Of a DNA stretch of 64,000 nt, positions 33,601 through 59,022 are shown piece after piece. A program made the position numbers and the translations under genes. This DNA is from Verrucomicrobiota bacterium (GTDB lineage Bacteria > Verrucomicrobiota > Verrucomicrobiia > Opitutales > Cerasicoccaceae), in assembly GCA_039818205.1 (NCBI GenBank), contig JBCBUK010000005.1, positions 232,065-296,064 on the forward strand, read 5' to 3'. The first letter of the stretch is position 1. Every line of letters begins with the position of its first letter. The notes beneath the pieces were generated by a model. That model was not told the DNA's origin. It ran no database searches and saw only the letters and a list, made by a program, of their open reading frames with translations.

Positions 33601-34080
33601 GACCAGCGGAGCACCAGGATCATCTTTGATGCGAGAAGCGACGCCCACGGCAGGCAACAGATTGTTGCCCACCGAAACTGGCATACTCATGACATTCAGC
33701 GCCCGGTCCGAGTGCATCACATTCATGTGCCGCCCTGCCGAACAAGAAGCCTCGTTCGCAAACAGAGAATCAAAGAATGATCGAGGCTCGACCCCGCGAG
33801 CGAGCAAAAGAGCTCGATCGCGGTAGTGACAACCCAGCCAATCGTCCGGAGTCAGAAACTCCGCGAGGGTTGCCGTTGCCTCGTGCCCCGCACTTGCAAT
33901 GTGGAAGTGCCCCTCACCTCGAGCGATGATCTTGCGTTCCTCGGACTCGATTTCGCGTGAGCGGACAAGACAGCCATACAAATCCAGGTACCGTTCCAGT
34001 AGATCAGATCGGCACGAATCCGGGGTGGATTCCGCTAAACGGGTCATGGGTTCAACCGGTCGGTCCTTGAAGACATCCAT
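30631..34080 (-). CDS. Fusion of 2-oxoacid dehydrogenase E1alpha + E1beta + lipoyl domain + beta-ketoacyl-ACP synthase III (FabH)
   Basis: HYRDR and TPP motif GDGGVQQG...QDN; LGEDI, NAPLAEA, IQFADF, GPFHTQ; lipoyl IEADKA; FabH triad AGCSG, PHQAN, GNTSSSS and AFGGGFT. Confidence 0.92.
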   Translation of the reverse strand: MDVFKDRPVEPMTRLAESTPDSCRSDLLERYLDLYGCLVRSREIESEERKIIARGEGHFHIASAGHEATATLAEFLTPDDWLGCHYRDRALLLARGVEPRSFFDSLFANEASCSAGRHMNVMHSDRALNVMSMPVSVGNNLLPAVGVASRIKDDPGAPLVYCAIGDGGVQQGDFYEAVGEAVRANLPVLFLIQDNGYALSTTTGGQTFFSLPDGQAESFLGVPIHYWDGVDVIDSREQFGNLCSKIRSTRGPAIAVMRVERLGSHSNADDQQAYRNADTLAENAKFRDPLIEFRKQLLDLGVDNDQLLEIEESARVAVKSAADEARQSADPVLSLEVKAPLSADYVNQTEPKEGRRIDTNGIGVTMRAAMREALHQAMSKDEAVTLLGEDIEDPKGDVFGVTQGLSEAFPDRVRNAPLAEASIMGLTIGQALAGGKPVGFIQFADFLPLIQNLYHNELASMYWRSAGQWNCPVVIMVSCGGYRGGTGPFHTQTLESVLAHSPGVDIVMPSTARDAAGMVNAALASNRPTVILYPKNLINAKLRASSGDVANYWVPIGKAHQCRSGDDVTLVGWANTVPLCEEAAQQLEALGVSAEVIDLRSITPWDEDAIRSSVRKTKRLVVVHEDNGFCGVGAEICACVVEGESVPARVRRVTRPEALVPFNLANQLEILPSVDDIIEAAAELMDLQLGWASDDVESSNIETISAMGVGASDDSVTVVEWLVKEGDTVSVDQDIAIIEADKAAAEMVSPFEGVVEALAVDEGVSISVGDPIMRIRCAEANTTERSSTKNQKKKPYIISTDDAAPLLASGPRSDENTIVRLGAIGIAHGSVEVSNEELLKRFPEKTSDDIVRRTGIESRYWASPEQTPLSLAVEAVEQLLEKTPVAMEDIDLVICSTTTPDRGTPSLAMRVLHALAPEQCCPGYDISAGCSGYLYGLQCAYDFLEGRSGNVLLVTTEVLSRTLDLEDYDTAFLFGDAATATLISARSADSGEPELSDELRLHKPLISGIGESGESLNVPLTDSPDSTAMRGKRVFYDAVRHMTNAMTQACAASGLEMDDLDVIVPHQANQRISRALAKRLSGRPERVWENIRNFGNTSSSSIPLCLSKNWEDLPGNARVALVAFGGGFTFGAAVLDYVSEKAKPADTSE

Positions 34081-38959: not shown

Positions 38960-38975
38960 TGGCATGGCATGTGCT
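38960..38975 (+). promoter_or_regulatory. Sigma-54 (-24/-12) promoter of the guanidine-type operon
   Basis: TGGCATGGCATGTGCT = GG-N10-GC, about 40 bp upstream of ATG 39017. Confidence 0.7.
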
Positions 38976-38979
38976 TTCA

Positions 38980-39007
38980 GTATTATGATTTTCCAAAAAC
39001 GTAATAC
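38980..39007. promoter_or_regulatory. NikR-geometry operator GTATTA-N16-TAATAC
   Basis: GTATTA-tgattttccaaaaacg-TAATAC; same spacing as the E. coli NikR site GTATGA-N16-TCATAC; covers the predicted transcription start. Confidence 0.78.
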
Positions 39008-39016
39008 CGCTTAATC

Positions 39017-40018
39017 ATGAAAATGCATATACTATCAAATGTATCTCGCCTATTGGCAATCGCTGCCTTGGGTTTTGCCTCCACAACGCTCCACGCAAAA
39101 GAACCCCTGAAAATCGCCTATAGCGATTGGCCAGGTTGGGTTGCCTGGGAAATTGGCATCAAGAAAGGCTGGTTCGAAGAAGCTGGCGTCGATGTCGACT
39201 TCCTTTGGTTTGACTACGTTGCATCGATGGATGCTTACGTGGCTGGCAAGGTCGACGCGGTATCAATGACCAATGGTGATGCGTTGGTCACTGGCGCCAC
39301 CGGGAAGCCATCGGTCGGCATTATTCTGAATGACTTCTCCAACGGCAATGACATGATTGTCGGCGGCCCGGGAGTTGATTCGATCAAGGACTTGAAGGGC
39401 AAGAAGGTCGGCGTTGAAGAAGGCTTTGTTTGCCACCTGCTTCTGCTCAAAGGGTTATCGGATAACGGTATGTCCGCTGACGATGTGACCATCGTCAACA
39501 CACCAACCAACGAAACGCCCCAGGTGCTTGCTTCGGGCGCTGTCGCAGCAATTGGCGCATGGCAGCCGAACTCAGGTGAAGCCTTGAAAGCGACGCCAGG
39601 CTCTTCACGCATTTATTCATCGGCTGATAGCCCAGGTATCATCTATGACTTCCTTTTCGTTTCTCCGGAGTCGTTGGAGACCCGTCGCGATGACTGGATG
39701 AAAGTGGTTGGCGTCTGGTATCGCATCGTCGACTACTTAAAGGACGAAGACAATATCGACGAAGCGCTCGAGATACTCTCATCACGCGTCAACTTGAAGC
39801 CTTCAGAGTATGAGCCGCTGTTTATTGGCACCCACATCCTCTCGCTCGATGAAGCGCTTGAGCGCTGGAAAAAAGGCGACGGCCTCGGCAGCGTCTACGG
39901 TTCTACTGACTTTGTTGATGACTTCAACGTGAAGTTTGAGGTCTATGAGGAGCCACTCAATACATCTAAGTATTTAGATCCGAGTCTGACAAAAGAATAT
40001 GCGAAGTCCGCGAAGTAG
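39017..40018 (+). CDS. ABC transporter substrate-binding protein (SsuA/TauA-like, urea-carboxylase-associated; probable guanidine-type ligand)
   Basis: Signal peptide; [33 protein letters not shown]; context with cgdAB and a carboxylase. Confidence 0.8.
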
Positions 40019-40045
40019 GGAATCGTGGTATCGTTAAAATAGGTA

Positions 40046-40083
40046 GCTTTGGCACCAAGCCGGATAAGGCTTGGTGCCAAGGC
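40046..40083 (+). other. Strong intercistronic hairpin after the binding-protein gene (mRNA stabiliser or partial terminator)
   Basis: TTGGCACCAAGCC-ggataa-GGCTTGGTGCCAA, perfect 13-bp stem, no U tract. Confidence 0.7.
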
Positions 40084-40109
40084 AAAACCACTGCTGCACT
40101 ACAACTACT

Positions 40110-41507
40110 ATGTCCAAATTCGATCCATGGTTGGCGATACGCAAACCACTGTCGCCACAGCGACAAGCACTACTCACGGTCGTTTCATTCCTACTGCCGA
40201 TCTTTGTTTGGTGCATTGTCAGCTACATACCGTGGCTCTGGCATCCGGACATGGTTGTTACAGTCTCCGCCGATCGCCATGATGTCACCACCGTCTACTC
40301 GGTTGGCGATCGATTACCACGTCACAAAGAAAGCGAAGACGACTTTGCCTTTGTCGATTTCGTCGAAGATGTTCGCGAGCGTAACGAAGAAATTCAAGCT
40401 GCCCGCGATTCTGGAGAGCCGATGGAAAGCTCCCGTCGCGCGAACAAGAAAGTTCTGCGTCACCTGGCACCGGTTGGCATTGCCGAAGGCTGGCTAACAC
40501 GGGACCAGGCCACTGATGATACGGCAATCTACACGCTTTGGGGAGAGATTGCGCGGGGTGAAAAACAACCGTCCAAAGTCCAACTCTCCCAAGAGAATTT
40601 GGCAGTCGTCCGGGACAACTGGAGTAAGGTCGGAGCGATCAGCGAAACCTACGATTCGAAGAAAATCCCGACGGAAATTCTCCTCAATTTAATTCCACAA
40701 GGCAAACCATCCAATCCCGTATTTGTACCCGCACCGCACGAGGTTGTTCAAACGGGCATTTATGATTGGACGCACCAACGCGACCCAGACAAGCCGGCGA
40801 TGTTCGAGCGCTACGGTCACTCGTTGACCATTGTCTTTAGCGGCTTCCTGCTTTCCTGCTTATTTGGCGTCCCACTCGGGATCTTAAGCGGAACCTACGA
40901 CTTTTTTGCCAAAATTGTTGAGCCCTTTACTGATTTCTTCCGCTACATGCCTGCCCCGGCATTCAGCACAATATTGGTCGCCATTTTATCGGTGTATGAC
41001 GCGCCGAAAATCGGCCTGGTTTTTCTCGGCACTTACTTCCAAATGGTGTTGGTCATTTCCAACACGACGCGAACCTTAGACCGCTCGCTTCTCGAAGCTG
41101 CCCAAACCCTGGGCGCCAAGAGCAAAGACATGATGTTCCGAGTCATCATCCCAGGCATCATGCCAAAGCTCTACAATGACCTTCGCATTTTGCTCGGCTG
41201 GGCATGGACTTGGCTCGTGATCGCAGAACTGATCGGAACCAAGTCAGGCTTGACCGAGTTCATTGAGACGCAGGGCCGTTTTCGGAATTTCGACAGTGTC
41301 TACCCAACGATCATCATCATTGGCCTAACCGGCTACGTGACCGACCAAATTCTCGCCGCCCTGCGCCCGCTTTTCTTCCCGTGGGATCCGCAGCATTCTA
41401 GTCAGAAGCTCAATGTGATCATCCGCTTTTTCAAATGGCTCACGAACTCGGAGTGCTACGTAAAGTCCGAGCAAGACACCAAAACACTAACCTCCAACGA
41501 CCAATAG
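40110..41507 (+). CDS. ABC transporter permease (SsuC/TauC-like) with a large soluble insertion
   Basis: [13 protein letters not shown] loop [25 protein letters not shown]; start moved to ATG 40110. Confidence 0.88.
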
Positions 41508-41517
41508 AAGGCTTCCC

Positions 41518-42414
41518 ATGATTGATGAATTGCAATTACCGAGCTATCGGGAACAAAGCCCAGAAGTTGCCAGCCGTTTCAAGTCCATCTATGAGCGACC
41601 CGTTAAGCTGGAGGTCAAAGGGTTAGGCCGAACCTTCAACTCGAACAAGGGTACTGTTCGTGCGCTCCACGATATCAGCTTCAACGTTCACCGCCGCGAA
41701 TTCATCTCGGTCATTGGGCCATCTGGCTGCGGTAAGTCGACCTTGATCCGTATTTTGGCAGGCCTAGATTTCCCGACATCAGGCGAGGCACTGCTCGACG
41801 GTAAAACAATCTTTGGCCCTGGTCGTGACCGCGGAATGGTTTTTCAAGGGTATACGCTTTTTCCTTGGTTAACCGTCAAGAAGAACGTGATGTTCGGTCT
41901 CGAAGTGTCTGGCAGGACAGGATCATCTGTAGAAGCGGAAGCCCGCTCCTGGATTGAGATCGTCGGCTTGGCCGGGTTTGAAAATGCCTATCCAAGCCAA
42001 CTTTCAGGGGGCATGAAACAACGCGTGGCGATCGCCCGATCCCTTGCGAATAATCCAAGCATGCTGTTCATGGACGAACCGTTTGGCGCCTTGGATGCCC
42101 AAACGCGGTGCCAGATGCAATCTTATCTCCTCCAGATTTGGCGCAACGTTGATGTCACGATCATGTTTGTGACGCACGATCTGGATGAGGCGATTTACCT
42201 TTCCGACCGCATCCTCGTGCTCAAAGCCAAGCCCGGGGAGATCAACGAGTTCATCGAAGTTCCAGTTCCCCGCCCACGCTCGGTTGACCAACTCCTTTCG
42301 CCAACCTTCCTCGCAACCAAAAAGCGTCTGGAAGAACTGATTCACCCAGAGGGAACGGAGATCAAGGAGCTCCCGGTAAAACGGTTCGTATCGGCTGACG
42401 AGGAAATTGAATGA
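41518..42414 (+). CDS. ABC transporter ATP-binding protein (SsuB/TauB-like)
   Basis: [36 protein letters not shown]. Confidence 0.95.
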
Positions 42415-43181
42415 CCGGCGCCAAGGCATCAAGTTCATGGGAACACCTGACCTGGCCGGAGATTGGCCAGCGGCTGGAAAGCGGCCAAGACGCTGCGATC
42501 CTTCCCGTGGGTGCAACCGAACAACATGGCCCCCACTTGGGCGTCGGCATGGACACGGCCTTGGCTGAACGACTGGCGCTCGCCGTATCGGCGTCGACTG
42601 GCGTTCCCTGTCTGCCAGCGCTCCCCTATGGTTGTTCAATAGGGCATTCTCACCGCTGGCCAGGCACCTTGGCGCTCAACCCGAAAACGCTCATTGATGT
42701 CATCGCCGACATTGGCCGTTGGTTCTACAAGAGTGGAGGCCGTCGCCTCTTTCTTGTCAACGGGCACGTAGGCAACCGTGCTCCCTTGCGCTGTGCGCTC
42801 GAAGTACTCCGAGCGGAATGTGAAGACTTCAAGATCGCGATTTTTACCACCGGCGACATCAGCGACCGCGTCGCGGCAGCGTTTTCTCAAGACGCAGCAG
42901 ACTGGCATGCAAATGCGGCCGAAACGGCCCTTATGATGCATCTTAGCCCAGAATCCGTTCGATTCGATCGGGTCCAGGACGCCGATGATCCGGATCGCAC
43001 CAACGATTGCGTTTTTGCCCACCCGGTAAACCGAACAAGCCTTAACGGTGTGACCGGCAAGCCATCGACGGCGACTTCCGCAATGGGCGAACAGCTGTTT
43101 GCGATCATGGTCGATGACCTCAGTGAACACATCATGAAGGGCCTGCAGGAGGCGTCGCCCCTCGAATTCCCCTACAACTAA
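42411..43181 (+). CDS. Creatininase/MftE-family amidohydrolase
   Basis: [19 protein letters not shown]...D, SIGH...[21 protein letters not shown] overlap with the upstream gene. Confidence 0.88.
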
Positions 43182-43198
43182 GCCACAAGGAATTTACG

Positions 43199-44617
43199 AT
43201 GAACTTGACCGAGTATACCGCACTGCCCTTTCAGAAATCTCAGGGAAACGCCTATGGCACACTGCCGGGTGACGAAGAAATCAACGCCGTTCGCAACACC
43301 TTGGCTGAGGCAGGAGTAAAATACGTAACCGGTGCCTATGTCGACATTCATGGCGTCCCCAAAGGTAAAGTCGTTCCGCTGTCGCATTTTGAGAGCTTTG
43401 CCAAAGGATCGGAGCTCTACACGGGCTACGCGCTCGATGGATTGGGCCAGCTTCCAAATGACGATGAAATCTGCTCGATTCCAGATCTGGGCAACATCGT
43501 TCAGCTTCCTTGGCAGCCGGAGATGGCCTGGATGCCGGCCGACAATGGATTCAAGGGGGAGCCCTACGAAGTTAACACTCGTGTCATTCTCCAGAAGGTT
43601 CTCAAGAAAGCAGAGTCGATGGGCTTCGGTTTCAACCTTGGTATCGAATGCGAGTTATTTGTCCTGCGCAAGCTTGCCGATGGCACTATTGAAATTCCAA
43701 ATCCTGAGGACAAGCAGGTAAAGAGCTGCTACGACCTCAACGGGTTCATGGCCCGCTTTGACTGGCTGGACAAAATGGCAACCACCATCGATGCCCTCGG
43801 GTGGGACCTCTATTCCTTCGACCACGAGGACGCGAATTCTCAATTCGAATTCGATTTCAAGTATGCTGATGCCCTGACCATGTGTGATCGGTTCATCTTC
43901 TTTCGCTTGATGGCTAAACAGTATGCCCAAGAAGAAGGCTTAGTTGCTTCATTTATGCCCAAACCCTTTGCCGACAAAACCGGCAGCGGTGCCCACTTCA
44001 ATATGTCGCTGTTTGACCTGGAGAGCGGGTCCAATCTTTTCGCCGATAGCAACGACACTCGCGAACTCGGACTCAGTAAACTCGGCTATCAATTCTGCGC
44101 GGGAATCCTCAAGCACGGACCAGCGCTGTGTGCCGCCTTTGCGCCAACCGTGAACAGCTACAAGCGCCTCGTCCGCCGCGGCCTAATGGCCTACTACTCA
44201 TGGGCGCCGGTATTCAATTCCTACGGCAGCAACAACCGAACCAACTCCTTACGCATACCGATGGACGGAGGCCGGGTCGAGTCGCGCAACGCCGACGCAT
44301 CCTGCAACCCCTATTTGGCGGCCACGCTAGCCTTGGCAGCTGGACTTCAAGGGATCGAAGAAGACCTCGATCCCGGAGAGCCCCAGGAGGACAACCTCTA
44401 TGCGCTTAGCAAGGAGCAGCTGCATTCGCGCGGGATCGATGAATTGCCTCGGAGTTTGCTGGAGGCAGTCGAAGCTTTTGCCGAAGACCCGTTCGTCGCC
44501 GAGGTCCTTGGAGATGGCCTGCGAAATGAATTTATTACCTACAAATCTGAGGAATGGCGCCAGTTTCATCAACGGGTTCACGCATGGGAAATTGATGAAT
44601 ATTTGCTCAAATTTTGA
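43199..44617 (+). CDS. Glutamine-synthetase-family ligase of the GlnT / gamma-glutamylmethylamide synthetase (GmaS)-like group
   Basis: [38 protein letters not shown]...[24 protein letters not shown]. Confidence 0.82.
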
Positions 44618-44624
44618 TCCCGCG

Positions 44625-44652
44625 GTATTAACAATTTGCCAAAAATTAATAT
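44625..44652. promoter_or_regulatory. Second NikR-geometry operator GTATTA-N16-TAATAT
   Basis: GTATTA-acaatttgccaaaaat-TAATAT, 36 bp upstream of the NikR-like gene; the spacer shares TTT.CCAAAAA with the 38980 site. Confidence 0.72.
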
Positions 44653-44688
44653 TGAATTGATCCCTGGAAACGCTAATCCATCAACCTT

Positions 44689-45138
44689 ATGACGGACCCC
44701 ATTGAGAGAATCAGCATATCGATGCCGAAGCGCCTAATCGAACGATTGGACGATATGAATGCGCGCCGGGGTTTCGATAGCCGCTCTCAGGCAATCGCTT
44801 CGATGGTCGAACAGCAGCTGGTTGAATACGATGAAAGCCTCGGGGAAGAGGTCATGACTGGAACCATCACCATCGTCTATGACCAGTCAAAGAACAATTT
44901 GAAGAAACGCTTAGCGGAAATCGAATACGAGAACATTGCCGAGGTGATTAGCTCGCTGCACGTGCTGCTCGAGAATGAGCACACCATGGAGGTCATTCTG
45001 GTCCAAGGTCCGGGCAAAAAACTACGCCACATCGCAGACCAACTAGTTTCCTGCAAAGGGGTAAAGAATGGAACCATGAGCCTCCACAGTGCCCTTATTC
45101 CACCGCTTCATTCGAAATCAATTAGCAAAAAGAAATAA
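44689..45138 (+). CDS. NikR-family ribbon-helix-helix regulator with a degenerate nickel site
   Basis: RISISMP...[20 protein letters not shown]...SSLHV...[11 protein letters not shown]-like domain. Confidence 0.85.
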
Positions 45139-45866
45139 TGTCTGAAACTCCTCCCCTCTTATATAACCGCCGAATCGGTGGCGGCCAAATGTGGTCAAAG
45201 GTCATCGGCCGAGGCAAATGCCTCAAGATAACCGACCTCGAAGGCGGTGCCAACGTCGGTATGATGCTCTACAATGCCAACGAGAAAACAGAGCGCTACA
45301 ACATGCCCGATACCCTCAAAGGGCAAAAGATCTTTTACCTAAGGGCCCCCTACTGCCTGCACTCCGACATGGGCCGGCTCTTTGCCTCGATTGTCGACGA
45401 TACGGTTGGCTGGCACGACACCGTCTGTGGCTCAACCAATGCTACCATGGTCGAATCCAAGTATGGTACGAACGACTATCAAGATGCGCGGAACGATTGG
45501 TACCGCAATGGACGTGACTGCTTCCTGATCGAACTTGGTAAATGGGGAATGGGCGAGCGCGACCTGATCCCGAATATCAACTGGTTTAGTAAAGTCAGCC
45601 CTGACGAATCGGGCAAACTCACCTACCAGAGCGGCAACTCACCAGCTGGCGCAAGCGTGACCCTGCGCTTCGAGTTGGACACCCTGGTTGTGCTTAATAC
45701 CTGCCAGCACCCGCTGGACTCAAACCCGACCTACGACCCCAAACCGGTTCAACTCGATGTCCTTCCGGCGCCAAGTGTGAGCGAGGAAGACCCCTCTCGG
45801 TCGATTCGGCCGGAGAATGGACGCGCGTTCCAAAACACTGAAGAATACAACCGCCTACGCTTCTAA
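45138..45866 (+). CDS. cgdA: Carboxyguanidine deiminase subunit A (DUF1989, urea-amidolyase-associated protein 1)
   Basis: [40 protein letters not shown]. Confidence 0.88.
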
Positions 45867-45869
45867 CTT

Positions 45870-46514
45870 ATGAGCAACTTTACCGAAAGCAGTCTTATTG
45901 AATCCGACGCCGTTTATAGTAAAGTCGTACGGGCCGGTGACTTTTGGATCCACCAGATCAATGCCGGCCAAACGCTGCGCATCGTCGACCTCGAAGGAAA
46001 CCAAGCCGCAGACACTCTCTTTTACAACGCCGATGATCCGGACGACCGCTACAGTGCGTGCGATACGATTGCCGCACAACAAGCCCTCTACCTAACTTCG
46101 GGTACGCGGCTCATGTCCACCCGTGGAACTGAACTGCTGAAGATCGTCGCCGATACCTGTGGTCGGCACGACACCTTAGGCGGTGCCTGTTCGCGCGAAA
46201 GCAACACGATGCGCTATGCGATGGACAAAGAGCCCATGCACGCGTGTCGCGATAGCTTTTTGCGCGGGGTGCAAAGTTGGAGCCCTCACCTCGATAAGCG
46301 AGATGTCACCTGCAACATCAACTTTTTCATGAATGTTCCCGTGTCTCCCGATGGCCAACTTGATTTTGCCGATGGCGTTTCAGCCCCAGGCCGGTACGTA
46401 GAGATGCAAGCGACCAGTAATGTGATCTGCTTGATATCCAACTGTCCGCAACTCAACAACCCGTGCAACGCCTACAATCCCACACCAGTTCAGGTCTTGA
46501 TCTGGGACTCCTGA
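45870..46514 (+). CDS. cgdB: Carboxyguanidine deiminase subunit B (DUF1989, urea-amidolyase-associated protein 2)
   Basis: [48 protein letters not shown]. Confidence 0.9.
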
Positions 46515-46527
46515 AACCCCGACCCAT

Positions 46528-49500
46528 ATGTTCAAAACGATCCTGATTGCCAATCGAGGAGAGATTGCTTTGCGCATCTTGCGCACCGCCCAGCGGATGA
46601 ACATTCGCACGGTAGCAATTTACTCCGAAGCAGACTCGCAAGCACCACACGTTTACCAGGCCGATGAAGCCATTTGCGTTGGCCCACCATCCGTCGCAGA
46701 GAGCTACCTCAACCAAGAGAAGATTCTGCAAGCAGCGTTGCAGTGCGGCGCCGAAGCGATCCATCCTGGCTATGGCCTGCTAAGCGAGTCCGCCGAGTTT
46801 GCGCAAGCTTGTGCTAACCGTGGTATTGTCTTTATCGGTCCGCGAGTCGAGCACCTCCAACAGTTCGGGCTAAAGCACGCAGCTCGCGAACTGGCTTTGG
46901 CTTCTGCCGTACCTTTGGTACCAGGGACCGACCTTCTCGGTTCGCTCCAGACGGCAAAGCAAGAGGCGGAGAAGATTGGATTTCCGGTGATGATGAAAAG
47001 CACTGCCGGTGGTGGTGGCATCGGCATGGAGGTTTGCCGCTCGATGGACGACCTCGATGCATCCTTCGATCGCGTCCAGCGCCTCGGCCAATCCAACTTT
47101 GGGCAAGGTGGAATTTTTCTTGAGAAATACGTTGAGCGAGCCCGCCACCTTGAAGTGCAAATCTTTGGAGATGGCAAAGGCAATGCCGTGTCTTTAGGAG
47201 TCCGGGACTGCTCGAGTCAGCGGCGAAACCAAAAAGTTATCGAGGAAACGCCGGCATGCGGGGTTCCCGAAAGCGTGATCAATGGACTGCAGGCGGCCGC
47301 GATTCGGCTGACCGAAAGTGTCGGGTATCTCTCAGCGGGCACTGTTGAGTATATCTACGACGTCAACGCCAGCACGTACTACTTCCTCGAAGTCAACACG
47401 CGCCTGCAAGTCGAACATGGCGTGACGGAAGAAGTGGTCGGAGTCGACCTCGTCGAGTGGATGATTCGGCAAGCAGCTGACGATCTGCCCAACCTGGACT
47501 TACCCAGTGAGCGTCCAGGTGGACACAGCATCCAGGCCCGAATTTATGCGGAGGATCCGGACAAGAATTTCCAGCCCTCAAGCGGCCTATTAAATCATGT
47601 GTCGTTCCCCGAGAGCATTCGATGCGACCATTGGATCTCTTCTGGCACGGAGGTCACCAGCCACTATGATCCACTACTGGCGAAGCTGATCGTGCACGCC
47701 CCGACTCGCGAAGAGGCAATTGCAGAGCTCCATGCGGCGCTTGAGCAAACCGCCATCTACGGAATTGAGACGAACCGCGAATATTTGAGTGCCCTGGTCC
47801 AGAGCGATCTCCTTCGGGAGAATAAGATGACCACGCAATCGCTCAAAGCATTTCAGTATGAAACCCTGACCATCGATACGCTTAAGTCCGGTGTTCAAAC
47901 GACTGTGCAGGACTATCCGGGACGCGTCGGCTACTGGGAGGTCGGGGTCCCGCCTTCGGGCCCGATGGACAGCCTTTCTTTTCGCTTGGGCAACCGGCTT
48001 TTGGGTAACGATGAATCAGCGGCCGGCCTCGAAACAACACTGGAAGGCCCGACTCTACGGTTCAACGCCCCAACCACAATCGTGCTAACGGGCGCGGAGA
48101 GCGATGCGAAGCTTAATGGGCAAGCGCTGAGCTTCTGGGAGCCGATTGAAATCGCGTCCGACGATGTTCTGGAAATGGGACAGGTCACCGGTATCGGTAT
48201 GCGTACTTATTTGTGTATCGCTGGTGGGTTAAACGTCGCGGACTACCTGGGCAGCAAATCAACCTTTACGCTTGGGAAGTTTGGCGGGCACGGCGGCCGC
48301 CCACTCCAAACCGGTGACGTTCTCCACGTCAATCGCTCAAGCAATGCGATCGCGGCCAAAGCCTTACCCGCCGAGTATCGCCCCAAGATATCAAACCAGT
48401 GGACTATCAACGTACTCTATGGTCCACACGGGGCACCCGATTTCTTTACCGATGATGATATCGAGACGTTCTTCGCCACCGAGTGGGAGGTGCATTTTAA
48501 CTCGGCCCGGACTGGGGTTCGCCTGATCGGACCCAAGCCGCAATGGGCCCGTCCCGACGGCGGCGAGGCCGGACTTCATCCATCCAATATTCACGACAAT
48601 GCCTACGCGATCGGAGCAATCGATTTTACGGGAGACATGCCAGTCATTCTCGGCCCAGACGGGCCAAGTCTCGGTGGCTTTGTTTGCCCAGCGACTGTTG
48701 CCTTTGCCGACCTCTGGAAGATCGGACAGCTTCGGCCAGGTGATCGAATCCGATTCGAATGCATTGACCAAAGTAGCGCTGCGCTACTGGTAAAAAACCA
48801 AGAGAACCTCGTCAACGCGCTTCGCAACGAGGAAACTCCAGCAGTGCCGTGTATTACTCCAAAGGCAACGGATCTCATCCTCACAGAGACGGGCGACGGC
48901 AACGAGCGAATGGTCATTCGGCAATCCGGAGATGACAATGTATTGATCGAATTCGGACCTCCACTCCTGGACCTCCGACTGCGATTTATCGTCCACGTAT
49001 TCTATGAGCAGCTACTCAAGAATCGACTAGAAGGAGTCATCGACCTCACACCCGGAATTCGTTCTCTCCAAATTCATTTCGATCGGGCCGCGTTGGAACT
49101 GGATTGTGTTCTGGAGTGGCTGCTCGCCCATCACGCGGACCTCAAATCTCTAGAGGAACAGAAAGTATCCTCGCGCATCGTCCACTTACCGCTTTCGTGG
49201 GACGACCCTTCGACGCAGCTAGCTGTTTCTCGCTACATGCAAACGGTTCGTCCCGATGCGCCTTGGTGCCCGAATAACCTGGAGTTTATCCGCCGAATCA
49301 ATGGACTTGAATCGGTCGATCAGGTGCGGGAAATCGTCTTCAACGCCAGCTATGTTGTACTCGGCTTAGGGGACGTCTACCTTGGCGCTCCAGTCGCAAC
49401 TCCTTTGGACCCGCGTCATCGGTTGATCACGACAAAGTATAACCCAGCCCGAACCTGGACTCCGGAGAATGCCGTGGGAATTGGCGGAGCGTATATGTGT

Positions 49501-50118
49501 GTCTACGGTATGGAAGGCCCGGGCGGGTATCAGTTTGTCGGTCGCACCCTTCAAATGTGGAACCGCTATGGAAGCGTCGATGCATTTCATGACGACAAGC
49601 CCTGGTTACTTCGGTTTTTTGACCAGATTCGGTTTTTCCCAGTTTCGGCCGATGAACTCACGCAGATCCGAAAAGACTTTCCCCAGGGCAGGTATCCGAT
49701 AAAAATTGAGCAGAGCTCCTTTGACCTCCACGAATACGAGGCGATGCTCGCCAAGAACGATGCCGATATCCAGGCGTTCAGGAGTCAACAGCGTGAGGCA
49801 TTCGATGCGGAACGTGGGCGCTGGAGCGACACGGACCAGCGTTCGGACCTGGACGAGGTAGCCGTGGATTCGACAAGCGATATCGAGCTACCTGAAGGCT
49901 CTCAGGCTATTGAGAGCTCAGTATCGGGTACGGTATACAAAGTGCTAGTTAACGAGGGTGACCACGTTCAAAAGGGCCAAACGACCCTGGTGCTCGAGTC
50001 GATGAAAATGGAAATTTCGGTATGCAGCCCTTATGCGGGCGAAGTGATGCATGTCGCCGTTGCAAATGGTGGCTTCGTCAAACCTGGCGATCGGCTTTTG
50101 GCGGTTCGCTCAGACTAA
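46528..50118 (+). CDS. Biotin-dependent guanidine carboxylase (urea carboxylase family, Asp type)
   Basis: [58 protein letters not shown]; follows cgdAB. Confidence 0.88.
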
Positions 50119-50177
50119 TCACTGCGCATAAGAAATTTGCATTGAGAAATATGTGATTCGTTTTTCAATTGAGAACA

Positions 50178-50870
50178 ATGTCTTCGTCAAAATCGAATAC
50201 TAAGAAAAATCGAAGTGAAGATATCTTTAATATCCTGCAAAGTCGGATCCTCTCCTGGGAGTATCAACCTGGGCATCGATTGAAAGAGGATGAGCTTTGC
50301 CGAGAGTTCGATGTCAGCCGAATTCCCATCCGGGAAGCTCTTAGCCGCCTCAGTCAAATCCATTTGGTGGAGCGCAAGGCCCACGTCGGCTGTTCGGTAA
50401 AGCGTTGGACACTGGAGGAAATTAATGAACTCTATGAGTTTCGTGTCGCATTGGAGACCTATGTTGTTGAGGCGCTTGCCCAGAAAGAGGATCCCATTGC
50501 CGAACTAAAAGAACTCAAAAAGGAATGGCAGGGCTACCTAACCGAAACGGATGACACCAGTTTTGCCCAAAAGAATTGGTCTACCCGGGACGAACACTTT
50601 CATGAGACGCTGGCCGCTGCACTTGGAAACCAACAGATTCTAAATTCGCTGCAAGACGTGAACTCTCGGCTTCGGTTTTTGCGCGTCCAGGACATCACGA
50701 CGCAAGAGGTTTTAACGAAAAGCAGTAAGCAGCATATCTCCATTATCAACGCGATTCGACGCAGCGACGACGAGTCCGCGAAAAAGTTGATGCGAACCAA
50801 TATTCAGATGGGTAAGGGCAACGTAAAGAGCGCTCTACAGCAAGTTCTCATGCGCTCCTATGAAGATTAG
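50178..50870 (+). CDS. GntR-family (FadR/FCD) transcriptional regulator
   Basis: PGHRLKEDELCREFDVSRIPIREAL; FCD motifs DEHFH and QHISII; start ATG 50178. Confidence 0.92.
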   Translation: MSSSKSNTKKNRSEDIFNILQSRILSWEYQPGHRLKEDELCREFDVSRIPIREALSRLSQIHLVERKAHVGCSVKRWTLEEINELYEFRVALETYVVEALAQKEDPIAELKELKKEWQGYLTETDDTSFAQKNWSTRDEHFHETLAAALGNQQILNSLQDVNSRLRFLRVQDITTQEVLTKSSKQHISIINAIRRSDDESAKKLMRTNIQMGKGNVKSALQQVLMRSYED

Positions 50871-50880: not shown

Positions 50881-52659
50881 CTAGCTGCCTGCTAGGCTGG
50901 ACATATACCGCCGCCACGACTGTAGATGGGTAATCTCAGTGGAACCTTCCACAGCGCAAGCCTCGGCGATAAAGCCCATGCACTCGACATCGCCCTTAAG
51001 GAAAACACGACCGAGACCGAGCGGAGCGCCGATGCCCTCCAAGAAACTCCCAAGCGTTTCACGCGGCAGCTGCCAAACCTCAACAGCGATGCTACTCCCG
51101 TGCATGGAATCTCTAACCAAAGCGGGCCGTCGGGGCTCGCCTTCGAGGGCAAACAACCGGTACATCGGCAAGGTCTCCGTCTTACGAACAAACCGACCGT
51201 TCCGCTCTAGCAGCTGAAAATTCAGTGGCATATCTTTCATGTGCGCACCACAAACCACGATCGGAACCAGACTATCCAAATTCTTTGATTCAGCAATGAC
51301 TTCCGGTGGGCTTAACTTACTCGTACCCATGGTCAAACCTGTCTTTGCGTGCAGCTCACCCGCAATCTCCAACAGGTCAAGATCCCTACCCGAACCGGCA
51401 AATAGTGTTACACCATGCGGAAGGTTGTCCTTACGAAACGCTACTGGTGTTGCAACTGCAGCAAGGTCAAAAAGGTTCATGAAATTCGTGTAGTAACCCA
51501 ACTCAGAATTCAGCGCGAGAGGCTCGTTGAGAACTTGCTCAGTCGTGTAGACGGTGCCGCATGTCGGAGTCATGATTCCATCAACTTGTTCTAGAACCTC
51601 GTCACCCAATCGCTTCAAGTCTTTTAGTTTATACTCAGCCCGAAAATAGTCGACCGCTGACGCCCGGTTACCCTGCTCAATGATCTGACGAGTGACCGGG
51701 TGGAGAATGTCTGGCCGTTCGGCGAGAATACTTTCTAACACAGAGTAACGTTCAGCCAACCAAGGCCCCTCATACAGCAAGCGAGCGGCATCTTTGAAGG
51801 GCTCAAAGTCAATCTCAACGACGTCATAACCAAGTTCGCGAACTAAATCGATTGCCTTGTCAAAAACGATCTTGGTCTGTTCATCACCGAAAAACTCCAA
51901 CTGCTCCGATTTCGGTATCCCAATTGATTGTCGGCGACTACCAGCCTGCAGCGAAATGCTCACCGCATAAGGATCTTCGGCATCGTAGCTTGCAGCAACT
52001 TCCAAGACCGCTTGAGCATCAGCATTTGAAAGCGCAAATATTGAAACGCAATCCAAACTGCGACAGGCGGGGACTAATCCCGTCGTGCTCAAAAGACCTC
52101 GACTTGGTTTTAGTCCAACAATGTTATTCAAAGAAGCCGGGATTCTTCCCGATCCCGCCGTATCAGTCCCAAGTGCAAACGAAACCAAGCCTTTGGACAC
52201 CGCGACCGCAGAACCAGAACTGGATCCGCCCGGAATGTATCGTGGATCAAACGGATTCGATGGAATGCCGTAGGGAGAGCGAGTTCCCACCAGGCCCGTC
52301 GCGAACTGATCAAGATTCGTTTTACCGATCGGAATCGCTCCGGCATCAATTAGTTGTTGAACAACGTAGGCGGAATTGGTCGGAGTGTATGCATAGTCGG
52401 GACACGCGGCAGTTGTCGGAACGCCTGCCAGATCTAGGTTATCCTTAACTGCAAACGGTATACCATAGAGCGGGTGTGTTTCCGGTGACTTGTCTTTCAG
52501 CTTTTCAACATAGACGGCTATTTCCTCACGTGAGAGGACGTAGATCCAGATCGCGGGATCCTCAACTCGAATGCGGTCCAAGACACAGTCAAGCACCGCT
52601 TGCGGATGGATCTCCCGATTGGCGTATTGCTTAATCAAGTTATCAATTGAAATATTCAT
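50881..52659 (-). CDS. atzF: Allophanate hydrolase
   Basis: LYGIPFAVKDN, GKTNLDQFATGLVGTRSPYG, GGSSSGS, GTDTAGSGR, C-terminal VCGAHM domain; start ATG 52659. Confidence 0.93.
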   Translation of the reverse strand: MNISIDNLIKQYANREIHPQAVLDCVLDRIRVEDPAIWIYVLSREEIAVYVEKLKDKSPETHPLYGIPFAVKDNLDLAGVPTTAACPDYAYTPTNSAYVVQQLIDAGAIPIGKTNLDQFATGLVGTRSPYGIPSNPFDPRYIPGGSSSGSAVAVSKGLVSFALGTDTAGSGRIPASLNNIVGLKPSRGLLSTTGLVPACRSLDCVSIFALSNADAQAVLEVAASYDAEDPYAVSISLQAGSRRQSIGIPKSEQLEFFGDEQTKIVFDKAIDLVRELGYDVVEIDFEPFKDAARLLYEGPWLAERYSVLESILAERPDILHPVTRQIIEQGNRASAVDYFRAEYKLKDLKRLGDEVLEQVDGIMTPTCGTVYTTEQVLNEPLALNSELGYYTNFMNLFDLAAVATPVAFRKDNLPHGVTLFAGSGRDLDLLEIAGELHAKTGLTMGTSKLSPPEVIAESKNLDSLVPIVVCGAHMKDMPLNFQLLERNGRFVRKTETLPMYRLFALEGEPRRPALVRDSMHGSSIAVEVWQLPRETLGSFLEGIGAPLGLGRVFLKGDVECMGFIAEACAVEGSTEITHLQSWRRYMSSLAGS

Positions 52660-52708
52660 TGCTGAAATCGGATTCACAAATACTTGGGAGATCTGGCTGG
52701 GAACGCAA

Positions 52709-55700
52709 TCACTCCGGCTTGATACCAACTAACTGCTGGCCTGTTCGCACCGGCGAACCCTCCTCAGTCAGAATCTGCGCAACTTTACCGCTAACGGTCG
52801 CCTGCACCGAAATCTCCATCTTCATTGCCTCGACAATCAGGATAGTTTGCCCGGCTTCGACAACTTCATCTACGCCCACGACAATCTTCCAAACGTTGCC
52901 ATTGATATGGCTGCAAACTGCTTCTACGCCATCAGGAAGGTCGGCTTCTTCGGGCGGCTCGGGCTCAAATGAGTCTGTCACGGCATTCTGGCCAGCCGCT
53001 TCCCACCGTTCCCGCTCCTCTTCGAATGCTTTCTGTTGTCGCGCCTTAAACGCGGCAATGGACTCAGCGTTTTCATCCAGAAACTCGTTGTACTCCTTCA
53101 GGCTAAAGTCCTGCTCCTCGATTTTAACCTCAAACGTGCCAGCGTGGAAGTCACGTCGCATCTCGACGAGTTCTTCCTCTTCGACCGGATAGTATCGCAC
53201 CTGGTCGAAAAACCTAAGAAGCCAGGGTTTTCCTTCCTCGAAGGGTCCCGTCTTGAGATAGCGATTCCAAATGGGAACTGTTTGACCAACGAGCTGGTAT
53301 CCACCGGGGCTATCCATCCCATAGATGCACATATAGACGCCGCCGATCCCCACCGTACCTTCGGCCGTCCAAGTGCGAGCAGGATTATACTTGGTCGTTA
53401 GCAAACGGTGTCGCGGATCAACCGGCACCGCCGCCGGCGCGCCCAGGTAAACGTCACCAAGCCCCATGACCATGTAGCTCGTACTGAAAACGATATCTTT
53501 CACCTCATCGACTGATTCAAGACCGTTGATGCGACGCATAAATTCGATATTGGACGGGCACCACGGAGCATCCTTACGGACAGATTTCTCATACTTGCGA
53601 ACTGCAGCCTGAGTCATCTCATTGTTCCAGCTCATCGGCAGATGAAGGACACGGGTCTTGATCACCATTTCCTCAATTGGTGGAAGCTCTTTCTCCGCCG
53701 CAACCAGCAGGTCCAGAAGCGCCTGCAGCCGAATCACCCGTGAGTCGTAGTGGAGCTGCAATGACCGAACGCCTGGTGTGATATCGATCAGGCCCGGGAT
53801 CGGATTCTTGTCGATCCAATCCATCAAGGCGTAGATGCGGAAGCGGAAATTCAAGTCGAGAACGATGGGACCGTATTCGATTAGGAGATACTTGTCTCCG
53901 CACGGCCGGTAGTTGACCTCCACTGGCAACTCTCCCTTCGGCAGAGTCACCGCCACGCAGGGCTCACGCTCCAACCCATCAGTCAGCTCATTAACGACCG
54001 CCTGATCGAGTTGTTGAACCCCGGCGTCCTGCAGCTCCTCCAGCGTATTGGCCGCTACCTGGGTGACGCAGGTGAAGCGAATGGAATCACCCGGACGTAA
54101 TTGACCAATCATCCAAAGGTCTGCTTGCACGATCGTTACTGGGCAAACGAACCCACCCAGGCTTGGTCCATCGGGTCCAAGTATAATCGGCATGTCCCCG
54201 GTAAAATTGATCGCGCCAATCGCATAAGGATTGTCGTGAATATTCGACGGGTGGAGACCTGCTTCGCCACCATCTTTACGCGCCCACTGCGGCGTACTTG
54301 GGGCAATCAACCGGATGCCGGTCCGGGCAGAATTATAGTGGACCTCGAACGTTGATGCCAAAAATGTATCGATATCCTCTTCAGTAAAGAAATCGGGCGC
54401 GCCATGGGGACCGTAGGTTACCCGGATCTCCCACTCATGATTATACTGGGGAATGAAGTCCCCCGGCAATTGGCGTGGGACGGTCTCTCCGACCTGATCG
54501 GGTTCCAGGAGGTGCAACACATCCCCTGGCAAGAGAGTCCGTCCACCATGGCCACCAAAGTTACCCATTGAGAAGGTCGCCTGACTGCCGAGATAAAAGG
54601 GAACATCAAAGCCACCGGCAACAGCCAGATAGGCGCGGCAACCCACAGAGGTAATCTTACCGAGCTTTAACACCGAGCCTGCCGAAACTGTCAACGTTCG
54701 CCACATCTGGACGGGCAACCCATCCAAGTCTGCCTCGATCGGAGCACCCGTGATAGCGATGCTCGCGTCTTGGTTGAACTTGAGCGTCGGCCCAATCAAA
54801 GTGATTTCGAGAGCCGCGATTCCTTCCTCATTCTGCACCAGGCGATTGGCCAACCGAAAAGAAAGGTTATCCATTGGCCCCGATGGCGGAACCCCGATAT
54901 CCCAGTACCCGATTCGGCCAGGGTAATCTTGAATGCTCGTTTGCGTTCCCGGGGTAATGACATCGACCCCGGTAGTCGGATACGAGAAGTCTTTAAGAAA
55001 CGCGGTTGTGATCGTGCCTTGTTTGAAATCAGGCGTCGCCACGATTCGACTCAAGTATTCTAGATTCGTTTCGATCCCGTGCAATGCGGTGGCATCCAAC
55101 GCTTCACTCAAAGAGGCGATGGCCGCTTCCCGCGAGTCCGCCTTCACGATGAGCTTAGCGAGGAGTGGATCGTAGTTTGGTGTTACCTCGGTTCCCGTGG
55201 CGATCCAGGTGTCGCAACGCACGCCTTCTGGAAACACAACCTCTGAGAGCACGCCCGAAGACGGCTGGTAGTTCTTACGGGGATCTTCAGCGTAGATCCG
55301 AACTTGAATCGAGTGGCCAGCGGTTGTGACAGAATCAACCCCTGCGGTCGGATCCTCCCCCCCAGCCAAGGTCAACATCCATTCGACGAGATCGACGCCC
55401 GTAACTTCTTCGGTCACCCCATGCTCAACCTGCAAGCGCGTATTCACCTCGAGGAAGTAGAACTCCTCGGTATCCACATTGACCAAAAACTCGACGGTTC
55501 CCGCCGATCGATACGCAATGGATGACGCGAGTCGCTGCGCGGCCTCGGTAAGGCCCGCCCTTAAACTGTCGGAAATGTTCGGTGCAGGTGTTTCTTCAAT
55601 CACCTTCTGGTTTCGGCGCTGTGCTGAACAATCTCGCTCGCCCAACGTAACGACGCCCCCCTGCCCGTTTCCAAAGATCTGAACTTCAATATGGCGAGCC

Positions 55701-56311
55701 CGGCCGACGAACTTCTCCAAGTAAATACCCGCCTGCCCAAAGTTAGTCATGCTTAGGTGCTCCACCTGCTCATAAGCCGCTCGGAGACTGCCGGGCTCCT
55801 CGCAAATGCGCATCCCGATGCCGCCCCCACCAGCGACGCTCTTAAGCATGACCGGATAGCCAATCTCGTCCGCCCGCTCCAAAGCTTGGTCCGCCGACTC
55901 CAGCAAACCCGTTCCAGGCAACATCGGAACATTGGCTTTCGATGCCAGTTCACGGGCCGTGTGTTTTAGGCCGAACTGATCAATTTGAGAAGGTGTCGGC
56001 CCGATAAAGCGAATCCCTCGATCTTCACAAGCCTGAGCGAAGTGTAGGTTCTCACTCAACAAGCCATACCCCGGATGGATTCCATCAACCCCGGCGTCCT
56101 CTGCAATCTGCAGGATCTTCTCGATATTTAGATAGCTCTCAGCGACGGATGCCGGGCCCACTTCATACGACTCGTCGGCCATATGAACATGTGGCGTATG
56201 CCGGTCGGGCTCGGAAAAAATAGCAACTGTCGGTATCTCAAGCTTCCGACAGGAGCGCATGATGCGGCAGGCAATCTCACCACGATTTGCGATCAAAACT
56301 TTCTTCAACAT
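52709..56311 (-). CDS. uca: Biotin-dependent urea carboxylase (Asn type)
   Basis: [51 protein letters not shown]; between urtE and atzF. Confidence 0.9.
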   Translation of the reverse strand: MLKKVLIANRGEIACRIMRSCRKLEIPTVAIFSEPDRHTPHVHMADESYEVGPASVAESYLNIEKILQIAEDAGVDGIHPGYGLLSENLHFAQACEDRGIRFIGPTPSQIDQFGLKHTARELASKANVPMLPGTGLLESADQALERADEIGYPVMLKSVAGGGGIGMRICEEPGSLRAAYEQVEHLSMTNFGQAGIYLEKFVGRARHIEVQIFGNGQGGVVTLGERDCSAQRRNQKVIEETPAPNISDSLRAGLTEAAQRLASSIAYRSAGTVEFLVNVDTEEFYFLEVNTRLQVEHGVTEEVTGVDLVEWMLTLAGGEDPTAGVDSVTTAGHSIQVRIYAEDPRKNYQPSSGVLSEVVFPEGVRCDTWIATGTEVTPNYDPLLAKLIVKADSREAAIASLSEALDATALHGIETNLEYLSRIVATPDFKQGTITTAFLKDFSYPTTGVDVITPGTQTSIQDYPGRIGYWDIGVPPSGPMDNLSFRLANRLVQNEEGIAALEITLIGPTLKFNQDASIAITGAPIEADLDGLPVQMWRTLTVSAGSVLKLGKITSVGCRAYLAVAGGFDVPFYLGSQATFSMGNFGGHGGRTLLPGDVLHLLEPDQVGETVPRQLPGDFIPQYNHEWEIRVTYGPHGAPDFFTEEDIDTFLASTFEVHYNSARTGIRLIAPSTPQWARKDGGEAGLHPSNIHDNPYAIGAINFTGDMPIILGPDGPSLGGFVCPVTIVQADLWMIGQLRPGDSIRFTCVTQVAANTLEELQDAGVQQLDQAVVNELTDGLEREPCVAVTLPKGELPVEVNYRPCGDKYLLIEYGPIVLDLNFRFRIYALMDWIDKNPIPGLIDITPGVRSLQLHYDSRVIRLQALLDLLVAAEKELPPIEEMVIKTRVLHLPMSWNNEMTQAAVRKYEKSVRKDAPWCPSNIEFMRRINGLESVDEVKDIVFSTSYMVMGLGDVYLGAPAAVPVDPRHRLLTTKYNPARTWTAEGTVGIGGVYMCIYGMDSPGGYQLVGQTVPIWNRYLKTGPFEEGKPWLLRFFDQVRYYPVEEEELVEMRRDFHAGTFEVKIEEQDFSLKEYNEFLDENAESIAAFKARQQKAFEEERERWEAAGQNAVTDSFEPEPPEEADLPDGVEAVCSHINGNVWKIVVGVDEVVEAGQTILIVEAMKMEISVQATVSGKVAQILTEEGSPVRTGQQLVGIKPE

Positions 56312-57872: not shown

Positions 57873-57877
57873 GTCAT

Positions 57878-59005: not shown

Positions 59006-59022
59006 CGCAAATTATCCATGGA

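Follow-up and report, generated by a model that had tools for sequence, protein, structure and literature searches.

What do a creatininase-family hydrolase and a glutamine synthetase (GS)-like ligase do in an operon whose other genes point to the use of free guanidine? The question is raised by positions 38960–50118 of a 64,000-nucleotide stretch of a Verrucomicrobiota genome (the window, in which all positions are numbered). In our reading, to which we give a probability of about one half, the operon serves guanidine use and includes an accessory pair of enzymes that would first glutamylate and then hydrolyse guanidine, and a NikR-like protein takes the place of the riboswitch. The evidence comes from signature residues, from gene neighbourhoods and from the riboswitches of related loci, which are given below by numbers with the prefix L.

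A guanidine carboxylase operon with two additional enzymes

The gene run consists of the following features.

39017–40018, + strand: NMT1/SsuA-like substrate-binding protein (SBP) of a NitT/TauT-type ATP-binding cassette (ABC) importer (Pfam/NCBIfam scans)
40071–41507, + strand: ABC permease (Pfam/NCBIfam scans)
41518–42414, + strand: ABC ATPase (Pfam/NCBIfam scans)
42411–43181, + strand: creatininase-family hydrolase (PF02633, 232.6 bits)
43199–44617, + strand: GS-like ligase (TIGR03105, 621 bits against a cut-off of 469.6)
44689–45138, + strand: NikR-family ribbon-helix-helix regulator (NF003381, PF08753, PF01402)
45138–45866, + strand: CgdA-type carboxyguanidine deiminase subunit (DUF1989; TIGR03425, 319.4 against a cut-off of 205.95)
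45870–46514, + strand: CgdB-type carboxyguanidine deiminase subunit (DUF1989; TIGR03424, 323.7 against a cut-off of 284.7)
46528–50118, + strand: biotin-dependent carboxylase, predicted guanidine type (TIGR02712, 1829.3 against a cut-off of 1303.85)

A sequence-only reading had described one co-oriented run, and every gene it named is an intact open reading frame at the position it gave. The ATGA overlap by which it coupled the hydrolase to the ATPase is present, and the NikR and cgdA genes overlap by one base (TAATG). Inside the run, terminator-like and sigma-70-like sites are no commoner than in shuffled sequence. The genome comprises 4.85 Mb in 66 contigs and is 99.97% complete, and the nearest relatives of the window genes are those of Opitutia, Coraliomargarita-type Verrucomicrobiota. 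The arrangement is not due to chance: the genes stand in the same order in Opitutia, Opitutaceae, other Verrucomicrobia, Oceanobacter and many metagenome contigs.

In the numbering of the K. lactis enzyme, position 1584 is Asp in urea and guanidine carboxylases alike, and position 1330 is Asp in guanidine carboxylase and Asn in urea carboxylase, according to Palatinszky et al. (excerpt of PMC11410670). Both carboxylases of the window were aligned to chain 5i8i, the urea amidolyase of K. lactis. The + strand enzyme (46528–50118) reads GAIDFTGD, with Asp at position 1330, and has the Asp of GLGD at position 1584; its Biotin_carb_N, CPSase_L_D2, Biotin_carb_C, CT_A_B, CT_C_D and Biotin_lipoyl domains are complete. 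Its − strand paralog (52709–56311) reads GAINFTGD, with Asn at position 1330, and keeps the Asp of GLGD. Because of this difference between GAIDFTGD and GAINFTGD, the carboxylase of the + strand operon is assigned to the guanidine type and that of the − strand operon to the urea type. In accordance, 11 of the 12 carboxylases that stand beside a hydrolase–ligase pair and cover position 1330 are of the Asp type. The carboxylase signature, together with scores of CgdA, CgdB and the allophanate hydrolase above curated cut-offs, bears out the proposal that the operon is of the guanidine carboxylase type.

Two observations on the carboxylases stand apart. The exception among the 12, L009 (positions 34–3552, Acidimicrobiaceae), combines a guanidine-I riboswitch–ligase–hydrolase–C26 unit and cgdAB with an Asn-type carboxylase (GAINFTGN); several genes of this locus look split, perhaps through assembly frameshifts. 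The window genome is the only one among 151 sampled of the phylum to carry full-length urea_carbox-family genes in two copies, of the Asp and of the Asn type.

Canonical guanidine carboxylase operons (Pseudomonas syringae, Raoultella, Klebsiella, Vreelandella) likewise contain CgdA, CgdB and an Asp-type carboxylase in the same order, and likewise begin with a NitT/TauT-family ABC importer; the allophanate hydrolase of the window lies in the neighbouring operon. They differ in the subfamily of the importer and in carrying a guanidine-I or guanidine-II riboswitch, in whose place the window carries a sigma-54-type promoter together with a NikR-type operator and regulator. In addition, the window operon has two more enzymes, inserted between importer and regulator. 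The genes 3' of the carboxylase are listed here.

50169–50870, + strand: GntR/FCD regulator, co-oriented, 50 bases 3' of the carboxylase gene (Pfam/NCBIfam scans)
50881–52728, − strand: allophanate hydrolase, last gene of a convergent urea operon (NF006043, 781 bits; TIGR02713, 737 bits)
52709–56311, − strand: predicted urea carboxylase, Asn at K. lactis position 1330 (TIGR02712, 1843 bits)
56317–62089, − strand: urtE, urtD, urtC, urtB and urtA, urea ABC importer (urtA 60815–62089, urtE 56317–57048; five of five above NCBIfam cut-offs)

The allophanate hydrolase gene is the sole one in the annotated part of the window (about 34000–64000), and cgdA and cgdB are the only two DUF1989 genes of the genome. 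A urease alpha subunit was searched for in the window genome and not found. Judged by family membership and signature residues, the operon would serve the uptake and assimilation of free guanidine during nitrogen starvation, under the sigma-54-type promoter and the NikR-type operator. The ABC importer would bring in guanidine, the Asp-type carboxylase would convert it to carboxyguanidine, CgdAB would deiminate carboxyguanidine to allophanate, and the allophanate hydrolase encoded in the adjacent urea operon would complete the breakdown.

The hydrolase–ligase pair

A hydrolase scan of one genome per species gave 16 loci, and a metagenome scan with an alignment of eight hydrolase orthologs gave 584 relatives, the best 80 of which were kept. 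The window proteins were mapped onto all 96 loci, in 56 of which the hydrolase shares 40% identity or more with that of the window. The ligase gene is adjacent in 41 of these 56 (39 identified by script, plus L019 and L031, where the genes overlap by a few bases), and is clearly missing in one (L056); in the other 14 the flanks are too short for a decision. Among the 40 loci with a more distant hydrolase, it is adjacent in one (L065). Flanks of 6 kb or more on each side are available for 12 loci; eight of these contain cgdAB, and the other four are L019, L036, L041 and L063.

The same association is found at the level of whole genomes. Among 151 Verrucomicrobiota genomes, the hydrolase is encoded in 7 (E at most 1e-40) and cgdA in 17, and all 7 hydrolase-bearing genomes are cgdA-positive, with the two genes within about 3 kb on the same contig in 6 of them. 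In Oceanobacter's class (401 genomes), the hydrolase is found in 13 of the 400 scored and cgdA in 32, and again all 13 are cgdA-positive. No genome with the pair was found among the 134 (Verrucomicrobiota) and 369 (Oceanobacter's class) cgdA-negative genomes sampled. All five further genomes traced from individual loci (Oceanobacter, two Acidimicrobiia, Abditibacteriaceae, Opitutia) carry cgdAB as well, two of them with the pair on a short separate contig. The sequence-only reading had asked whether the two extra genes are conserved beside cgdAB, and the survey answers that they are, in 8/12 well-flanked loci; at the genome level, cgdA accompanies the pair in 7/7 and 13/13 genomes. The pair is thus, by its distribution, accessory, optional and specific to guanidine loci. 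A self-sufficient third route of guanidine use, which we also considered, is weakened by the failure to find the pair in any of the sampled cgdA-negative genomes. Cultured carriers of close ligase homologs include Coraliomargarita akajimensis, C. parva and other Coraliomargarita strains.

Guanidine operons that lack the pair were obtained from the cgdA neighbourhoods of 14 hydrolase-negative genomes. Five Verrucomicrobial operons (L105–L109) have the order SBP–permease–ATPase–NikR–cgdA–cgdB–carboxylase, without hydrolase and ligase. Their SBPs are 54–69% identical to that of the window, and some pair-bearing loci are more distant (L003, 52%; L010, 60%). Eight gammaproteobacterial operons (L097–L104) have SBPs only 31–36% identical to the window's, where a match was found; a class I riboswitch is retained in 7/8, mostly alongside class II. 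Because pair-less operons share the importer type and the NikR-like regulator, the pair is classed as an optional insert, and the importer type is not specific to pair-bearing operons. Pair-less operons, which can process only guanidine itself, use the same importer type and regulator, and this speaks against a special substrate of operons with the pair.

The SBP (39017–40018) scores 153 bits on TIGR03427, under the cut-off of 334, and its matches to solved structures are weak (nitrate and sulfonate binding proteins, E 1e-6 to 1e-4) and allow no ligand to be inferred; from its operon context it probably binds guanidine. The permease (40071–41507) is 478 residues long, and the Pfam transport domain covers residues 266–433 only. 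Its long N-terminal part is matched only by L001; most other loci align from about residue 165–250.

The hydrolase (42411–43181) is the only PF02633 protein encoded in the genome. It shares the fold family of P. putida creatininase (PDB 1j2t, 3a6h) and keeps the equivalents of the EQHG His and Glu, Asp45, His120, His178 and Glu183. It differs in matching creatininase with only about 92 bits and, in common with the other window orthologs, in an invariant YGC-x-GH motif that replaces the creatininase loop. In particular, it reads NGHVGN where creatininase reads NGHYEN, with Val-Gly, or other residues in the orthologs, in place of Tyr121-Glu122; the latter position, a metal ligand in creatininase, is variable (G/T/M) across the eight orthologs. 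The score on the creatininase equivalog TIGR04448 is 129.6 bits, under the cut-off of 235, and that on the MftE model TIGR03964 is 138 bits, under the cut-off of 172. An identification as creatininase (EC 3.5.2.10) was rejected on the TIGR04448 score and the Gly at the Glu122 position. By the criteria tested, therefore, the protein is predicted to be a creatininase-fold metal amidohydrolase outside creatininase.

The ligase (43199–44617) exceeds the TIGR03105 cut-off and scores 309.8 bits on the GS model TIGR00653, under the cut-off of 429. Its nearest solved structures are both GmaS (9qur, 376 bits; 7cql, 317 bits), and true GS chains follow with about 249 bits. A 451-residue database form of the protein (P0001) would start at about 43262. 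The roles of residues in RhGmaS and GS were taken from an excerpt of Wang et al. (PMC7948447). The ligase has Thr75 at the position of GS Asp50', Tyr at that of Ser53' and Trp335 at that of the flap Glu. GmaS also lacks Asp50' (Ala) and the flap Glu (Trp), and the catalytic Asp177, Glu179, Glu186, Tyr147 and Lys30', as well as Trp300, are common to GmaS and the window ligase, with the dodecameric GS fold implied for both. The two differ at Gln175, Asn188 and Trp189 of RhGmaS, which lie in or beside the methylamine pocket and correspond to Ser206, Asp219 and Phe220 of the ligase, and at Ala48', which corresponds to Thr.

These replacements mark the whole group. Ser, Asp and Phe occupy the RhGmaS positions 175, 188 and 189 in all 40 pair-linked copies that cover them, down to 41% identity, and the pocket signature T75/S206/D219/F220 is invariant wherever its positions are covered. 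The control set was made up of the 30 top-scoring TIGR03105 genes from the 401 genomes, less one that stems from an unpublished genome. Of the remaining 29, the four that neighbour a hydrolase gene all have T/S/D/F, and the 25 others all have A/Q/N/W or A/Q/N/Y, as in RhGmaS. The identity of the ligase to the group with the GmaS signature is 34–45%.

Two known identities were rejected for the ligase. An ammonium-specific GlnA-type GS is contradicted by the replacement of Asp50', Ser53' and the flap Glu by Thr, Tyr and Trp and by the TIGR00653 score. GmaS likewise lacks the ammonium residues of GS, but in the window ligase Gln175 and Asn188 are replaced, and the genome appears to lack N-methylglutamate synthase. 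The genome has a single GXGXG domain, within a 1563-residue open frame that we read as glutamate synthase; no second GXGXG domain, and hence no separate N-methylglutamate synthase, was found in this 99.97%-complete genome, the dehydrogenase partner not having been searched for. Without N-methylglutamate synthase, γ-glutamylmethylamide would have no onward route. A second TIGR03105 gene was searched for in the window genome and not found, and there is one other clear GS gene. The ligase is accordingly classed, by its residues, as a GS-like γ-glutamyl ligase of a subfamily apart from GmaS and GlnA. Compared with GmaS, its pocket would be roomier and have one more carboxylate, as would suit a larger cation with several hydrogen bonds to donate, for instance guanidinium.

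Riboswitches, promoter and the NikR-like regulator

No guanidine-I or guanidine-II riboswitch is found in the window, where nothing matches Rfam at gathering score. We also scanned 59 loci with a hydrolase at least 38% identical to that of the window, and riboswitches were found in nine (L009, L010, L020, L021, L024, L034, L051, L058 and L065). In L021, a guanidine-I riboswitch stands directly 5' of an SBP–permease–ATPase–hydrolase–ligase unit; in L034 it does so as well, and cgdAB, carboxylase and allophanate hydrolase follow. In L009 and L058, it stands directly 5' of ligase and hydrolase, and in L065 it precedes a unit of 2-oxoglutarate (2OG) oxygenase, hydrolase and ligase. L010 and L024 carry both forms of control on separate units, riboswitches on a divergent cgdAB–carboxylase unit and the protein operator on the importer–pair–NikR unit. 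These positions indicate that guanidine is the signal for the pair-bearing units. One guanidine-I riboswitch has been described to bind guanidine and not methylguanidine (excerpt of PMC12508155).

Two candidate control elements precede the window operon.

38960–38975, + strand: sigma-54-type promoter TGGCATGGCATGTGCT, GG-N10-GC spacing (pattern search)
38980–39007, no strand assigned: palindrome GTATTAT-N14-GTAATAC, presumed operator, 4 bases 3' of the promoter (pattern search)

The first base of TGGCATGGCATGTGCT, 38960, is also the base at which the sequence-only reading began. The sigma-54-type pattern has two matches in the window, compared with 0.70 expected by chance, and rpoN is present in the genome. 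Equivalent sites occur 5' of the SBP gene in L001, L010, L019, L022, L024, L025, L031, L063, L105, L106 and L108–L110; in L021 and L034 such a site precedes the guanidine-I riboswitch. The second match in the window, TGGCATGTGGATTGCT (63036–63051, − strand), lies just upstream of a 283-residue open reading frame (62123–62974, − strand) that heads the operon of urtABCDE, urea carboxylase and allophanate hydrolase and has no NCBIfam match at E 1e-10. Since this second match adjoins the frame heading the urea operon, both nitrogen-scavenging operons may be sigma-54 dependent.

The GTATTAT-N14-GTAATAC site is unique in the window (0.18 expected by chance). A promoter followed by a 7-N14-7 palindrome is found 5' of the SBP gene in all seven NikR-bearing loci with an upstream region (L001, L003, L010, L019, L022, L024 and L025), and the palindrome at 38980–39007 is presumed to be the binding site of the NikR-like regulator. 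Variant palindromes occur 3' of the promoter in the pair-less L105, L107, L108 and L109. That of L105 (6007–6070) reads GTATGA-N16-TCATAC, the form of the E. coli nik operator, although regulators of the present family are without the nickel site.

The NikR-like protein scores 117.6 on NF003381 (cut-off 105), 83.3 on PF08753 and 24.4 on PF01402. Like NikR of E. coli, H. pylori and P. horikoshii, it consists of a ribbon-helix-helix and a NikR_C domain, and like theirs, its presumed operator is a palindrome of two half-sites overlapping the promoter region. NikR binds nickel through four square-planar ligands, three His and one Cys, which we mapped on alignments to 2bj1 and 2ca9. In these alignments to the P. 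horikoshii and H. pylori proteins, the window protein has Tyr, His, Leu and Thr at the ligand positions. The ligand Cys is absent in 6/6 NikR-like proteins, and the window protein also lacks two of the three His. It differs from NikR, therefore, in keeping one of four nickel ligands; in addition, its operon serves nitrogen scavenging, not nickel uptake, in a genome without urease. A NikR-like gene and a riboswitch before the SBP gene never occur in one unit (L021 and L034 have the riboswitch only, L105–L109 the regulator only). Because no unit has both, the NikR-like regulator appears to stand in for the riboswitch.

Two further features lie upstream in the window. A 1149-residue open reading frame (30631–34080, − strand) joins E1 alpha and E1 beta domains of the pyruvate dehydrogenase type, a lipoyl-type domain and a FabH-like β-ketoacyl-acyl carrier protein synthase III, an unusual fusion. 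A CusA/CzcA-type heavy-metal efflux system of the resistance-nodulation-division type (pump, adaptor and outer-membrane factor; 23565–30535, − strand) appears unrelated.

Possible reactions of the pair

In the reading that we prefer, the ligase would join the γ-carboxyl of glutamate to guanidine at the expense of ATP, giving γ-glutamylguanidine, an N-acylguanidine. The metal hydrolase would then convert γ-glutamylguanidine either to γ-glutamylurea and ammonia or to glutamine and urea, and the products would enter the urea/allophanate branch. This chemistry via γ-glutamylguanidine is the course that we consider most likely for the pair. The NikR-like protein would probably repress the operon at the palindrome and respond to guanidine or to a pathway intermediate.

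In L058 and L009, the riboswitch–ligase–hydrolase unit continues into a Peptidase_C26 gene (183 bits by Pfam in L058; 62% identical to it in L009, by tblastn), and in L058 the unit stands back to back with a urease gene carrying the beta-subunit domain. Peptidase_C26 is the family of PuuD-type γ-glutamyl hydrolases, and one GS-like ligase followed by two hydrolases is consistent with a γ-glutamylation pathway. In these two loci, the C26 enzyme would remove the glutamate, and the creatininase-fold enzyme would cut within the activated guanidine group. γ-Glutamylation is known from catabolic pathways for putrescine (PuuA/PuuD) and isopropylamine (IpuC/IpuF) and from the aniline and naphthylamine systems. 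Such pathways likewise combine a GS-like ligase with a hydrolase, of the very type that follows the pair in L058 and L009. They differ in that the constant partner of our ligase is a creatininase-fold metal hydrolase, and the window operon lacks C26. To our knowledge, no described γ-glutamylation pathway uses guanidine, the presumed amine of the pair.

Several points weigh against this reading. A tblastn search of the window for Peptidase_C26 was negative, which leaves no gene there to release glutamate. In the samples the pair is confined to cgdA-positive genomes, although a self-sufficient pair would be expected also without cgdAB; it thus seems to need the carboxylase pathway, and a parallel course of the two would cost more ATP. 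The co-occurrence figures are counts without a test, and the related genomes behind them are not independent samples. Of the other six Verrucomicrobiota genomes that carry the pair, three lack both urease and a second carboxylase, and thus a dedicated urea sink; in a comparison for a urea-product signal, urease is present in 3/6 of these genomes and in 3/10 pair-less cgdA-positive Verrucomicrobiota genomes, with no clear difference. Oxygenases stand beside the pair in some loci, Rieske-type in L002 (1234–2523), L041 (16137–17477) and L063 (12161–13573), which are 50–70% identical to one another, and 2OG/Fe(II) dioxygenases in L065 (2073–3167) and L051 (14623–15630); they may extend those loci to methylated or substituted guanidines. 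An operon under a guanidine-specific riboswitch can still encode enzymes that demethylate methylguanidine (excerpt of PMC12508155), so the riboswitch names the signal and not necessarily every substrate. Finally, γ-glutamylguanidine itself was not found in the literature searched.

The sequence-only reading had looked for a different substrate. In the broader form in which we weighed this proposal, the imported compound would be a guanidine with a substituent or an acyl group (such as methylguanidine, creatinine, a glycocyamidine-type ring or guanylurea); the hydrolase would free guanidine from it, and the amine or ammonia given off would be captured by the ligase. We consider this unlikely. 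Such a feeder would need a guanidine-degrading host, as is found in 7/7 and 13/13 genomes, and creatininase does hydrolyse a cyclic acylguanidine. The demethylase-like oxygenases beside the pair in L002, L041, L063, L065 and L051 point the same way, as do known extensions of guanidine carboxylase operons that handle methylguanidine (same excerpt, PMC12508155). However, the importer type and the regulator are the same in operons that lack the pair, and the riboswitch–ligase–hydrolase unit of L058 has neither importer nor carboxylase nearby. With the riboswitches standing before the pair and with the low creatininase equivalog score and the altered Glu122 position, these facts speak against a hydrolase that unmasks methylguanidine, creatinine, creatine or another substituted guanidine. 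Hydrolysis of methylguanidine, moreover, yields urea and methylamine, not guanidine. The earlier proposal that the ligase traps methylamine or ammonium fared no better, since the ammonium residues of GS are absent, the GmaS pocket is replaced at three positions in every copy, and no N-methylglutamate synthase, which a separate GXGXG domain would reveal, is apparent.

The family name given by NCBIfam, type III glutamate–ammonia ligase, suggests another role, in which the ligase is a guanidine-tolerant GS isoform assimilating the three NH3 from each guanidine and the hydrolase is an unrelated housekeeping enzyme. The presence of no more than one further clear GS gene in the genome would agree with this, as would the poor yet measurable activity of RhGmaS with NH4Cl (excerpt of PMC7948447). 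Yet the ligase lacks the equivalents of Asp50', Ser53' and the flap Glu, and neither the near-obligate adjacency of ligase and hydrolase (41 of 42 informative loci) nor the Peptidase_C26 partner in L058 and L009 is explained, which makes this role improbable to a high degree. We find it just as hard to credit that the pair buffers or repairs, the ligase trapping guanidine as a less basic, non-chaotropic γ-glutamyl conjugate (or forming one by accident) and the hydrolase releasing glutamate and guanidine again, to the protection of the cell. The pair does stay with the importer in the split loci L010, L024, L019 and L021 and does depend on the presence of cgdAB, and by analogy a creatininase-type enzyme is expected to cut the acyl–N bond of an acylguanidine. 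Against this stand the waste of ATP by such a cycle within a nitrogen-starvation operon and the second, γ-glutamyl-type hydrolase (C26) of L058 and L009, which suggests that the creatininase-fold enzyme cuts another bond.

We therefore return to glutamylation followed by hydrolysis of guanidine. A bolder form of this reading, which we advance only tentatively and hold to be less probable than its opposite, is that the locus encodes two new activities, a γ-glutamylguanidine synthetase and a metal hydrolase cleaving its product, which together open guanidine by acylation with glutamate instead of by carboxylation or a nickel guanidinase, and that the NikR-like protein is the first protein sensor of guanidine or its conjugate. 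The sequence-only reading knew of no described pathway with this gene set, and we found no description of the set in the literature searched either, nor one of the pair and the NikR-like regulator; the neighbourhood data of Schneider et al. 2020 and Sinn et al. 2021 could bear on this. No RNA dataset was listed as containing the 5-kb core; the only dataset listed was a DNA run, possibly the one behind this sequence.

About four in ten of the carboxylase-pathway genomes sampled carry the pair (7/17 in Verrucomicrobiota, 13/32 in Oceanobacter's class), and many pair operons have a NikR relative without the nickel site in the riboswitch's place. Guanidine has only recently been recognised as a widespread nitrogen source, and two routes for its use have been described, one by way of the carboxylase and the other by way of the nickel guanidinase. 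It is thus probable that bacteria use guanidine through a further step still to be described. The reaction of the pair, once solved, would complete the map of guanidine use by marine and soil bacteria and add a substrate class to the GS-like ligases, and the solved system would probably yield a protein-based guanidine sensor for biosensing.

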